A stretch of 28,461 nt of DNA from Candidatus Faecivivens stercoripullorum (GCA_018715285.1 DVLW01000203.1:1-28461), one strand, 5' to 3'. Shown: positions 2 to 14,389, numbered from the stretch's first letter. Translations and numbers: made by a program. The notes: a model not told the origin generated them from the letters alone.

Positions 2-367
2 TCTGTTACACATTTTGAATTGGGTGAACCGGGAGCTTCGGCTGAGTATGAGCTTCTGCAACGTCAGAACGAATACCGTTTTAGACGGGGTACAGCTGCT
101 AAAGAAAATGAACAGCTGAGTACACGGCTTATCCAGCTCTATCATCTGCAGGAAAGCGAACTCTATCCGGGTGTTTATTTTACCAAACGTTGGAATGGAC
201 CGGGACAGACGGATTATACGATGGTGGTCTGGTTTGACGATTACAGCTTCATGTGTTCCATCTGGATGCCATACGATCTGTTTAATGAAGAGGATATCCC
301 GACCTATACCGAGGTAGAGTATTTCTATATCGACACTGACAATCAAACGATGGTTGTTGCGGAATAA
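2..367 (+). CDS. Hypothetical protein, C-terminal part (5'-truncated by the window edge)
   Basis: Frame is open from position 2 (SVTHFELGEPG...) to TAA at 365-367 and is followed by a hairpin. No family motif recognised. Confidence 0.7.
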   Translation, partial: SVTHFELGEPGASAEYELLQRQNEYRFRRGTAAKENEQLSTRLIQLYHLQESELYPGVYFTKRWNGPGQTDYTMVVWFDDYSFMCSIWMPYDLFNEEDIPTYTEVEYFYIDTDNQTMVVAE

Positions 368-12086: not shown

Positions 12087-12115
12087 TTGACAAATCCTGT
12101 CAGGTATGCTATACT
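12087..12115 (+). promoter_or_regulatory. sigma-A promoter of tRNA-Ser
   Basis: TTGACA-17 bp-TATACT, extended -10 TG, A-rich UP region. Confidence 0.8.
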
Positions 12116-12145: not shown

Positions 12146-12236
12146 GGAGATGTATCGAAGTGGTCGTAACGAGAACGACTCGAAATCGTTTTGTCAGTAA
12201 AATGGCACGTGGGTTCGAATCCCACCATCTCCGCCA
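12146..12236 (+). tRNA. tRNA-Ser (anticodon CGA)
   Basis: Acceptor GGAGATG/CATCTCC, anticodon arm AACGA-CTCGAAA-TCGTT, long variable arm, T-arm GTGGG-TTCGAAT-CCCAC, discriminator G, encoded CCA. Confidence 0.96.
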
Positions 12237-12274
12237 GTTAAGAGATACCATGTAACAACGTGGTATCTCTTTTT
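12215..12274 (+). repeat. Direct repeat copy 1: tRNA-Ser 3' end plus terminator
   Basis: 57/60 identical to 12460-12519. Confidence 0.95.
12239..12274 (+). terminator. Intrinsic terminator of tRNA-Ser
   Basis: AAGAGATACCATG-TAACAA-CGTGGTATCTCTTTTT. Confidence 0.85.
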
Positions 12275-12293
12275 ATGTCCGCAAAACCTCTGT

Positions 12294-12470
12294 GTGGGAT
12301 TCGAACGGGAGCAGGCCCGGTGTCCGGGCGAACTTGATGACGAGGTTTGTACACGCCTTTGGTGCTCAGCAACTCAGGCGTTTCTTCCACGGTCATACGG
12401 TTCTTTCATGACAGTCCGGTGGGCTGTCAGAGCTGCGACCTGGCTCGCCCGCAGGCGAGTCGAATCCCAC
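12294..12470. mobile_element. Putative non-autonomous miniature element bounded by tRNA T-arm-derived inverted repeats
   Basis: GTGGGATTCGAAC (12294-12306) is the exact reverse complement of tRNA 12213-12225 and pairs with TCGAATCCCAC (12460-12470). It has several internal hairpins and its core recurs at about 19.96 kb. Mobility is inferred. Confidence 0.55.
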
Positions 12471-12519
12471 CATCTCCGCCAGTTAAGAGGTACCATGTAA
12501 TAACGTGGTACCTCTTTTT
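12460..12519 (+). repeat. Direct repeat copy 2: att-like duplicate of tRNA-Ser 3' end plus terminator
   Basis: TCGAATCCCACCATCTCCGCCAGTTAAGAG is exact for 30 nt, then the terminator carries three substitutions. Confidence 0.95.
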
Positions 12520-12622
12520 TTACATGCGTCAGCCATCTGATAACAGGCGAACCATTCCCTATCGATACTGGAATGCAAAATGACGCGGAACCTTTTATTT
12601 TATTGCAGAAAGGTGATTTCAG

Positions 12623-13548
12623 ATGAGTGATCTTTTTTTCGCGCTGGCAAACAGATTCTCCGAACAGCTCGGACAAAGCCGGTAATCTCCGTCCATACCG
12701 AACCTATGGCACCGGATGAACAGGGATATTCCGGTGCACGGCTGCAACGGCTGCTCTGCACAGACGAGGATGGAAAAACCGTCCGTTTTATCTGCAAGCA
12801 GACCACACTGCGCGAAATAAACGTCATGCAGGCATTGACCGACCAAAAACGCGGACATACACCTCTGAGCTGTTCTCTGCCGCAAGAGAACGACCAGCCG
12901 GGATGGTTTATCATGCAGGATATCCGCTCACAGGAAAAACTGCCGGACGATCTGAGGCAATGGAAACGGATGGTGGCCTCTTCACTCGCCGATATCCACA
13001 CCGATAATCTGGGCGGCAATTCCATCCCGCAGCTGCCCACAGCAGACGAAAACTACTGGAAAGAAATTACCTCAAAGATTTCCCTCAGCCATTTTTCCGA
13101 AATCTGCAAAAATAACGATGCCTTTGCCCGTAAATATGCCGGTATGCTTCCGTTACTCTGCCGACGCGCTGAAACATTCGTTGCAGACATGACCGCAATG
13201 AGCCGTGATACCGGCTGTATGACGGTTACCCACGGTGATTTGCAGCAGAATGACGGCGATCACGTGCGAATCTGGCAAGGCAGGCCGATGATTATTGACT
13301 GGGGATTTTGCCGGTATGCACCGTTTTATATCGATCTGGTCGACTATTTCACGCCCGATGAATCGATGGTTTATTGGGAAGAACTGCGCCGGAGAGGCGT
13401 TTTACTGAGCAGAGAAGACTTTGCCTGCCGGTTTCATGCGGCATCTCTCTACCCGGCATTTATCTACCTCTATCCTGCATTGATGCACTTTCTCCGTGGG
13501 GATGACACCCGGCTGGAGAGACTGCTTGCCATCTTCCGCAACGGATGA
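12623..13548 (+). pseudogene. APH/choline-kinase-family phosphotransferase, apparently frameshifted near the 5' end
   Basis: HGDLQQND and IIDWGF motifs in the 12706-13548 frame. The RBS-linked ATG at 12623 (AAAGGTGA) stops at 12683; one added base joins the frames. An intact shorter protein starting at 12706 is not excluded. Confidence 0.65.
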
Positions 13549-13559
13549 CAGACACCATT

Positions 13560-14317
13560 TTATACCTGCACCACGCCGTCCTGATCGGTCACAATCAGAG
13601 CACCCTCTGAAAGACCAAAGGCGGCTATTTCATTAAACGGGTAGATTTTTTCGCCGATTTTCTGCATACCGATCATCATCACACCGTCCGCATCAAAGCT
13701 GTACCAGAAGGTACCGGATGAGCCGGTGATTTTACGCCAGGCGCTTTTGACCGGCTGTCCATTCTCGTAATAATACCATTTTTCCCCGATCTGTTTCCAG
13801 CCATTTTCCGAAGCCGTCAGCCGCTTGTTGACCTCGGCGGCGATATACGGGAATTTGCTTTCGAGATACGGTCCGGGACAGGCGTCGCCGCAAACCATTT
13901 GTGCATGGTCAGGTTGCCGTTTTTATCGCCGGTGAAATTCAGCTTTTCGATATTATTCCGGCGGCAGATATCGGTGCACAGCTCAATCAGCTTTTCCATC
14001 GCCGTATCCGATACCTTCCAGTCAGGCGCACCGGTCAGGTTTGCAACCTCAATGGTAATCGCCTGATGGTCGTTTTCAGGATTAGAGCTGCACCAGGAAC
14101 GGTCTTTTTCCTCGACATACATGCCGACCCTGCCGTCATTATCCACCGCGTAGTTAGAGCTTGCCTGCCGGGAAGTTTTGGCAAACATAGCGCCGCACTC
14201 CTCGACGGTCATAAATCCAGCCATATGATGGATGGTAATCTTTTTGATTGCGCTGTTGCGCGGGCTGGTTTTGTTGGGACTGAGGATGGTATAATCCACA
14301 AGTTTACTGTTACTCAT
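13560..14317 (-). pseudogene. Phage-endolysin-like N-acetylmuramoyl-L-alanine amidase (Amidase_2) with cell-wall-binding repeats, split by a 1-nt deletion
   Basis: ITIHHMAG...ASSNYAV...AITIEV...HKWFAAT in one frame continues as ACPGPYL...GWKQIGEKWYYY...WYSFDADGVM in the next. Break at about 13885; AAAGGAG RBS before ATG 14317. Confidence 0.85.
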
Positions 14318-14389
14318 GAGATACTCCTTTTCAGATTCCCATCGGCTTCCCATTATATGTCCACTACCGGAAATATGTCCACCATCAGC

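Follow-up and report, generated by a model that had tools for sequence, protein, structure and literature searches.

The tRNA-Ser(CGA) gene of Candidatus Faecivivens stercoripullorum is followed by a stretch that we read, on balance and with modest confidence, as a decayed single-unit copy of a widespread family of gene-less hairpin modules, which sit at the 3′ ends of tRNA and tmRNA genes in gut Oscillospirales and would act as non-autonomous modules at the level of DNA. Full-text searches of the open-access literature yielded no description of this module family, which is apparently undescribed. The copy lies in a window of 28,461 nt (the whole stretch of DNA that was analysed, DVLW01000203.1:1-28461 of GCA_018715285.1), where it is placed, as in the rest of the family, directly 3′ of the tRNA and its terminator and on the tRNA strand.

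The tRNA-Ser(CGA) locus and its repeats

The features of the locus are given below in window coordinates, with P0 denoting the closing stem of the module, IR-L and IR-R its two arms, and P1 to P3 the helices of the core.

12087-12115, + strand: sigma-70-like promoter of tRNA-Ser(CGA), TTGACA-17-TATACT, near consensus
12146-12236, + strand: tRNA-Ser(CGA), intact, CCA encoded (ARAGORN and Rfam; tRNA 57.5 bits)
12215-12274, + strand: direct repeat copy 1, comprising the T-loop from T55, the T-stem 3′ strand, the acceptor 3′ strand, CCA and terminator 1
12240-12271, + strand: stem of terminator 1, followed by a T-run, within direct repeat copy 1
12275-12293, + strand: spacer between terminator 1 and IR-L, decayed in the window copy
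12294-12306, + strand: IR-L, exact reverse complement of tRNA G53-C65, 5′ arm of P0
12307-12314, + strand: 5′ strand of the core helix P2, GGGAGCAG
12315-12407, + strand: nested 93-nt insertion, a unit of a different dispersed intergenic repeat
12408-12429, + strand: end of the conserved internal loop, followed by the hairpin P1 (9 pairs, GGT loop)
12432-12440, + strand: 3′ strand of P2, GCTGCGACC, which takes in the tandem G.A pair positions
12444-12459, + strand: P3 hairpin, CTCGCC-CGCA-GGCGAG, directly adjoining the T-loop copy
12460-12519, + strand: direct repeat copy 2, comprising IR-R, then the acceptor 3′ strand and CCA to 12481, then terminator 2
12460-12470, + strand: IR-R, 3′ arm of P0
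12485-12516, + strand: stem of terminator 2, followed by a T-run, within direct repeat copy 2
12520-12595, + strand: 76-nt stretch from terminator 2 to the start region of the downstream gene

The initial annotation had reported a 60-nt direct repeat (offset 245 nt, 3 differences) together with an exact 13-nt inverted copy of the T-arm, and both were reproduced, the repeat at 12215-12274 and 12460-12519 and the inverted copy, GTGGGATTCGAAC, at 12294-12306. The 22-nt part of the repeat that derives from the tRNA end has exactly 2 occurrences in the window, with 0 expected from shuffles, and 0.03 matches are expected for the inverted copy. Gut metagenome contigs from 3 independent studies reproduce positions 12195-12464 with zero differences, and thus the arrangement is not a misassembly.

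Both direct-repeat copies end in a 14-pair terminator-like hairpin, in which pair 6 is A-T in copy 1 and G-C in copy 2, and the third difference between the copies falls in the loop (AACA versus AATA). Pair 6 of terminator 1 is G-C at the empty site described below and in most relatives, G.T in relative G001 and A-T in the window, and terminator 2 of the window retains G-C. The compensatory change that had been proposed for the terminator stem is therefore supported for copy 1, and the series across relatives indicates that terminator 1 evolved via a G.U intermediate on the transcribed strand; this terminator still serves tRNA-Ser(CGA). A promoter scan of the locus found no promoter between the two terminators, and on the + strand the site at 12087-12115 is the sole promoter-like site upstream of the module.

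Two observations concern the neighbouring genes. The downstream gene (12623-13548, + strand) has its start at 12623 in the orthologue of relative G005, and in the window this frame meets a stop after ~20 codons and reopens at an ATG at 12706; contigs of two runs (X5 and X14) have one extra A behind 12672. The break is either a frameshift in the MAG or a consensus error, and no Pfam family was found for the 280-aa product. On the minus strand (13560-14353), two overlapping frames, one with Amidase_2 (13817-14353) and the other with a choline-binding repeat (13560-13898), appear to be parts of a single cell-wall amidase gene broken by a frameshift.

Unit number, the empty site and a nested insertion

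In same-genus relatives the unit at tRNA-Ser(CGA) measures ~158 nt and follows the order terminator, ~20-nt spacer, IR-L, P2, internal loop, P1, P3 and IR-R. The internal loop of the core is purine-rich, with TA(G/C)TGAAT opposite GA; P1 has the consensus GACAGYCC-GGT-GGRCTGTC, and P3 is a short hairpin with a CGCA loop, abutted by an IR-R that often runs through CCA and a further terminator. In younger copies elsewhere the spacer is the reverse complement of the acceptor and CCA. Unit number varies at this tRNA, with two units in G009, at least two in G001, one each in G014, G013, G007 and G004, and zero in G005, G003 and G010. The search for an empty site, suggested by the initial annotation, was answered by G005, where between syntenic flanks the ribosome-binding site and start of the downstream gene come immediately after the terminator, and the 76 nt at 12520-12595 have no counterpart.

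The direct repeats, including the terminators, are more alike within a genome than between genomes, which fits in-situ duplication or homogenisation as well as import. Such genome-specific likeness, highest within the locus, is also what would be expected if the arrangement arose by local rearrangement, that is by slippage and hairpin (quasipalindrome) template switching at the terminator, with the family reflecting a shared structural hotspot and not mobility. In keeping with this, unit number differs between close relatives, and at three related loci (L101, L040 and L037) the tRNA end, terminator and IR-L form one long palindrome. However, local events cannot give the same ~65-nt core (at least 24 nt identical) at unrelated tRNAs and in unrelated families, and within other repeats, nor can they give the constant arm boundaries at G53 and T54-G57, and as an account of the family we hold local rearrangement to be improbable. 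Template switching may nevertheless make IR-L after the core has arrived.

The copy in the window is itself interrupted. Positions 12311-12394 resemble an intergenic repeat of which >25 copies are dispersed over this genome, 0 of them in open frames. At the tRNA-Ser(CGA) locus of same-genus relatives, the sequence of the window up to 12314 joins directly to that from 12408 onward, and metagenome contigs show the joint of 12314 to 12408 with TAGTGA or TACTGA between. As 12315-12407 is missing from both, the window must carry a 93-nt nested insertion that replaces these 6 nt of the core internal loop. The core loop is thereby split, which makes the window copy a damaged family member in which P2, P1 and P3 are present; being single and interrupted in this genome, the window module is probably inert here. 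The only other trace in this genome is a decayed IR-L-like stretch after the terminator of tRNA-Ser(GGA) on contig C146 (tRNA at 191-283, minus strand), where GAGGAATTTAAAC past the terminator agrees at 10/13 positions with the IR-L expected for Ser(GGA) and no core follows, possibly the scar of a lost module.

The dispersed repeat that supplied the insertion is found elsewhere in the genome, often in tandem, for example at C169:4009-4088, C244:5906-5967, C192:13435-13491 and C221:1592-2041. Its unit consists of a variable-stem hairpin with a TGT/TGC loop followed by ~60 conserved nt (...GACTTGATGCC...CACGCC...GCTCAGCA...), and no Rfam family matched it. A decayed excisionase-like helix-turn-helix on the minus strand (12300-12404, MTVEET...) was considered for this part of the module and rejected, as similar places in the genome are frameless intergenic repeats.

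The core recurs behind other tRNA genes between cognate arms

Among the matches listed, an exact 24-mer of the core occurs in >120 contigs, from MAGs of Oscillospiraceae, Faecousia, Faecivivens and Colimorpha and of further Clostridia of the gut and rumen. Of the 104 core copies examined, those with T-arm-like arms stand behind tRNA genes for Ser(CGA), Ser(GGA), Ser(GCT), Tyr, Arg(ACG), Met, Val, Gln, Leu(CAG), Ala, Glu and Trp, as well as behind a tmRNA. The initial annotation had suggested looking for the same interior at other tRNAs, and it was indeed found there, behind at least 12 tRNA species, with two flanking arms that match the tRNA in question. The core 24-mer follows the end of the tRNA by 70-97 nt, or by one unit more, and the orientation of tRNA-linked copies is fixed, always on the tRNA strand. 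At other tRNAs IR-L is a reverse complement of 10-18 nt that starts at G53, the boundary in most family members, and in some copies it continues through the acceptor, CCA and the terminator flank; IR-R starts at T54-G57 and extends over 8-60 nt. The arms read ATTCGGAC / CCGAATCC at tRNA-Tyr and GGGGACTCGAAC / TCGAGTCCCC at tRNA-Arg, and those of the window (12294-12306 and 12460-12481) have the same G53 and T54-G57 boundaries. Copies seemingly without a tRNA were found at contig starts, with the tRNA end just visible. Together, the empty site and the cognate-armed copies at other tRNAs refute a one-off local duplication.

The initial annotation had left the choice between a non-autonomous mini-element at the tRNA T-loop and a collapsed island, and of the two only the mini-element is sustained, by its recurrence, its cognate arms and the empty site. 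In a collapsed island, a tyrosine-integrase element would have lain between the two copies of the tRNA end, and an internal deletion would have left the 185 nt now present. The attL/attR footprint in its classic form is a direct repeat of the tRNA 3′ part with its start in the T-loop, and Williams reportedly described in 2002 such repeats as left by integrase-borne elements, with classes according to sublocation within the tRNA gene; an apparent prophage boundary also adjoins modules at a tmRNA end in one viral contig. Yet neither cargo nor integrase remnant was found in the ~45 tRNA-linked copies, whose tRNA-to-core spacing keeps to 70-97 nt or one unit more, and the interior is not debris but a conserved covarying core common to at least 12 tRNAs, plus a nested repeat. 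Moreover, the integrase model needs no inverted copy, and no recurrent neighbouring gene was found within ~4 kb of 80 loci, where only generic ABC ATPases recur. The collapsed island is thus largely refuted, and we consider it a quite improbable origin of the window copy.

Approximately half of the core-carrying copies lie away from tRNAs and have other closing stems, suggesting that the core may be a cassette carried within repeats of various kinds, with the T-loop association only one of its habits. A MAG of the Oscillospiraceae (SIG473; loci L049, L057 and L079) contains a ~330-nt repeat with long terminal inverted repeats, AATTCCGATT...CTGTAGGGGAGGG, in which only the right terminal hairpin has the core in its loop, the left one being empty, apparently a direct case of core insertion into a pre-existing hairpin loop.

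With one mismatch allowed, the 24-mer is present in 25/301 genomes sampled across the order (Oscillospirales), unevenly by family: 4/4 in f4, 7/12 in f17, 3-4/18 in others and 0/18 in other genera of the window's family. It also occurs in 5 IMG/VR contigs, in intergenic DNA or at a tmRNA-side boundary, and the collections of phage and plasmid records gave no match to an intact module. A near-identical core, a patchy spread and presence or absence at orthologous sites amount to the behaviour of a mobile element.

Two further observations were made at these loci. In the IMG/VR contig L169 (11800-12234), two tandem modules with arms that copy the tmRNA 3′ end adjoin an apparent prophage junction in the final ~15 nt of the tmRNA, which would place integrase-type and module-type use of one gene end side by side. 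The Gut-1 RNA motif (RF01706, up to 60 bits) occurs in several copies near tRNA arrays and modules in relatives (L037:736-808, 852-911, 2132-2202 and 2329-2415; L043:944-1023) and represents a separate multi-copy structured repeat.

The core is a covarying fold whose arms decay independently

IR-L pairs over 11 nt with the second direct copy (12460-12470), and in relatives it is this IR-L/IR-R pairing, not that of IR-L with the tRNA's own T-arm, that closes a conserved three-way junction. The proposal that the inverted copy closes the insert against the tRNA is accordingly not upheld, the partner being the downstream direct copy instead. The window copy still folds as the junction, to which the nested repeat adds a branch (z = -4.6). 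P2 is a real covarying helix: changes on both sides are seen in 7/9 pairs, with 95 such cells versus 31 in shuffles (0/500 reach 95), and controls with the helix slid give ≤0.07 versus 0.21. In P1 one pair changes from C-G to T-A among relatives, and the T.G wobble of the window is the intermediate. Within P2, G.U exceeds A.C (24 versus 8), and the tRNA-sense strand folds better in 69/79 copies, an asymmetry that is not independent evidence since the copies share one core.

The arms behave differently from the core helix P2. A comparison of 29 copies over positions 56-65 gave 23 differing sites between IR-L and the tRNA and 22 between IR-R and the tRNA, as against 42 between the two arms. The differences are roughly additive and lack compensation; both arms are thus independent copies of the tRNA that drifted separately and were not co-maintained. 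Such independent decay argues for an event at the level of DNA that used the tRNA gene as its template, and not for a maintained RNA stem. Between them, IR-L and IR-R rebuild tRNA positions 55/56-65 as a predicted duplex.

These data bear directly on a structured RNA, which would be made by read-through or from another promoter and in which a tRNA-like 3′ end (acceptor strand and CCA) on a three-way junction would serve as a decoy or substrate for tRNA 3′-end enzymes, or as a processing or stability element. The covariation of P2, the tandem G.A positions and the conserved purine-rich loop are in agreement with such a molecule, as are the excess of G.U over A.C in P2, the greater stability of the tRNA-sense strand and the fixed orientation to the tRNA in all tRNA-linked copies. 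RNA-library contigs contain the module without the nested insert, although contigs from an RNA library do not show transcription. Against this, the module has no promoter, a strong terminator stands in front of every unit, and the closing stem is without compensatory change. The module is moreover patchy, near-identical across families and found inside other repeats and viral contigs, as a mobile element would be, and in the window copy the conserved loop accommodates a 93-nt insertion. With Rfam 15, neither the window locus nor 21 related loci gave a family for the module, the best matches being at chance level (tmRNA_permuted, 11.4 bits; DUF3800-XI, 22.2 bits versus a cut-off of 37.8). We regard the structured RNA as unlikely, if the least so of the alternatives to a DNA-level module. 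Hammerhead-like (CUGACCGA ... GAGA) and K-turn-like readings, made by eye, were set aside, as invariant positions deviate and no model supports them.

A possible route of insertion

From the cognate arms, the empty site and the recurrence at many tRNAs, we infer that the module inserts or recombines at the T-loop of tRNA genes, as DNA and in a non-autonomous manner. It would bring or regenerate a tRNA 3′ end and terminator, so that the tRNA stays intact. In the route that we propose, folding of a single strand would bring IR-L and IR-R together as a duplex that reproduces the target segment 53-65; a putative recombinase supplied in trans would then exchange strands with the chromosomal T-loop, and replication would fix the product. 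Unequal recombination between the direct repeats could subsequently add or remove tandem units. Protein-domain searches bore out the initial annotation in that no recombinase is encoded in the window, and in the genome assembly, which is 84% complete, one tyrosine recombinase gene (PF00589) was found.

The folded-strand reading accounts for the arrays, the small size and fixed orientation of the module, its cognate inverted copy and the need for a structured core without a gene. It does not account for the rewriting of the arms at a new tRNA, for which quasipalindrome template switching is a candidate, nor for repeats and terminators that are most alike within a genome. Junctions of excision (12274 to 12520), of circles or of inversion were absent from metagenome and metatranscriptome contigs, which drop rare variants; since contigs cannot show rare forms, strand or transcription, this carries no weight for or against excision, inversion or an RNA. 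Antisense pairing of the inverted copy with the tRNA, which the initial annotation had considered, was likewise not seen in any of the analyses.

Movement of single-stranded hairpins by a Y1 HUH transposase (RAYT or IS200/IS605 TnpA), as for a REP/REPIN-like element, offers another route for a small, hairpin-rich, intergenic and non-autonomous element. Two Y1_Tnp genes are present in the genome, and GNA-type loops and GCGAAGC mini-hairpins are found in non-tRNA copies. The distribution of the two, however, does not coincide: Y1_Tnp occurs in ~9/25 module-positive genomes versus 112/301 overall, and in f17 modules are found in 7/12 genomes versus 1/12 for Y1_Tnp, with 4/4 versus 1/4 in f4. Furthermore, no fixed tetranucleotide flank is seen, and insertion of the IS200/IS605 type makes no duplication. 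This route is disfavoured and appears very unlikely.

Taken further, the folded-strand reading would make the module a protein-less folded DNA cassette whose closing stem copies the landing site both ways, offering a duplex mimic of the T-arm to a host recombinase and retargeting by re-templating the stem. A sequence-programmable, hairpin-guided system of this kind, distinct from integrons, IMEX elements, MITEs and IS200/IS605, is put forward only tentatively, and we think it rather doubtful at present.

Significance and relation to known elements

The 3′ ends of tRNA genes are classic landing sites of islands and prophages. Here, the same T-loop site is used by a ~150-nt gene-less element that copies its target both ways and spares the tRNA by bringing an extra end and terminator. 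Were folded-strand recombination to hold true, the attC/CTX principle would apply to tRNA genes and in Gram-positive gut anaerobes as well, and nature would offer a site that takes its specificity from the stem of the element itself. The modules also have practical consequences. Many copies lie at contig ends, so the modules break MAG assemblies at tRNA loci; they can pass wrongly for att scars of lost islands, and annotation pipelines overlook the tandem terminators and pseudo tRNA ends to which they give rise. To this, the window copy adds a decay dated by a nested insertion, a G-C to G.U to A-U path and an orthologous empty site.

Islands and prophages that integrate at the T-loop of tRNA and tmRNA genes, and their gene-less derivatives, the CIMEs of Streptococcus thermophilus, resemble the module in leaving the tRNA intact, in a 3′ repeat that starts in the T-loop, in tandem accretion and in having an empty site. 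The flanking direct repeats of the tRNA 3′ end that characterize tyrosine-integrase islands and CIMEs are present in the module, but an integrase or full-length relatives that bear one were not found in the window or among the ~45 tRNA-linked copies. A unit of 158-245 nt is, in addition, too small for a double-stranded circle and has no integrase or cargo in any copy, and unlike islands and CIMEs the module has a cognate inverted copy and a conserved covarying core that recurs at 12 or more tRNA specificities.

Group IIC introns likewise lie directly downstream of a terminator hairpin. The module differs from them in its core of ~100 nt, which has no intron domains or reverse transcriptase and gave no Rfam intron match.

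MITEs and the BOX, RUP, Correia/NEMIS and REPIN repeats are, as is the module, small, non-coding, multi-copy, intergenic, modular, nesting and patchy by lineage, and often lie behind terminators. Fixed terminal inverted repeats, as in a MITE, are absent from the module, whose arms vary with the tRNA and whose target duplication is 20-60 nt and not 2-10 bp; no autonomous relative was found among neighbouring genes or in the collections of phage and plasmid records. MITE, BOX and REPIN-type repeats have a mover that is known, and no transposase is known to match the module. Unlike REP/REPIN elements, the module does not co-occur with a Y1 HUH transposase.

The attC sites of integrons and the attP(+) of CTX phage and other IMEX elements invite a further comparison. 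The module differs from these in its target, the tRNA T-loop, in arms that change with the target, and in having no IntI gene, R/L consensus or dif-like site, where RYYYAAC/GTTRRRY boxes and a dif-like sequence were looked for by eye. By its predicted fold it would share with these systems an imperfect hairpin with a stem that restores the duplex target, and a terminal structure between the arms that is variable or branched. Orientation is fixed and arrays occur in both, and an enzyme acting in trans is proposed for the module.
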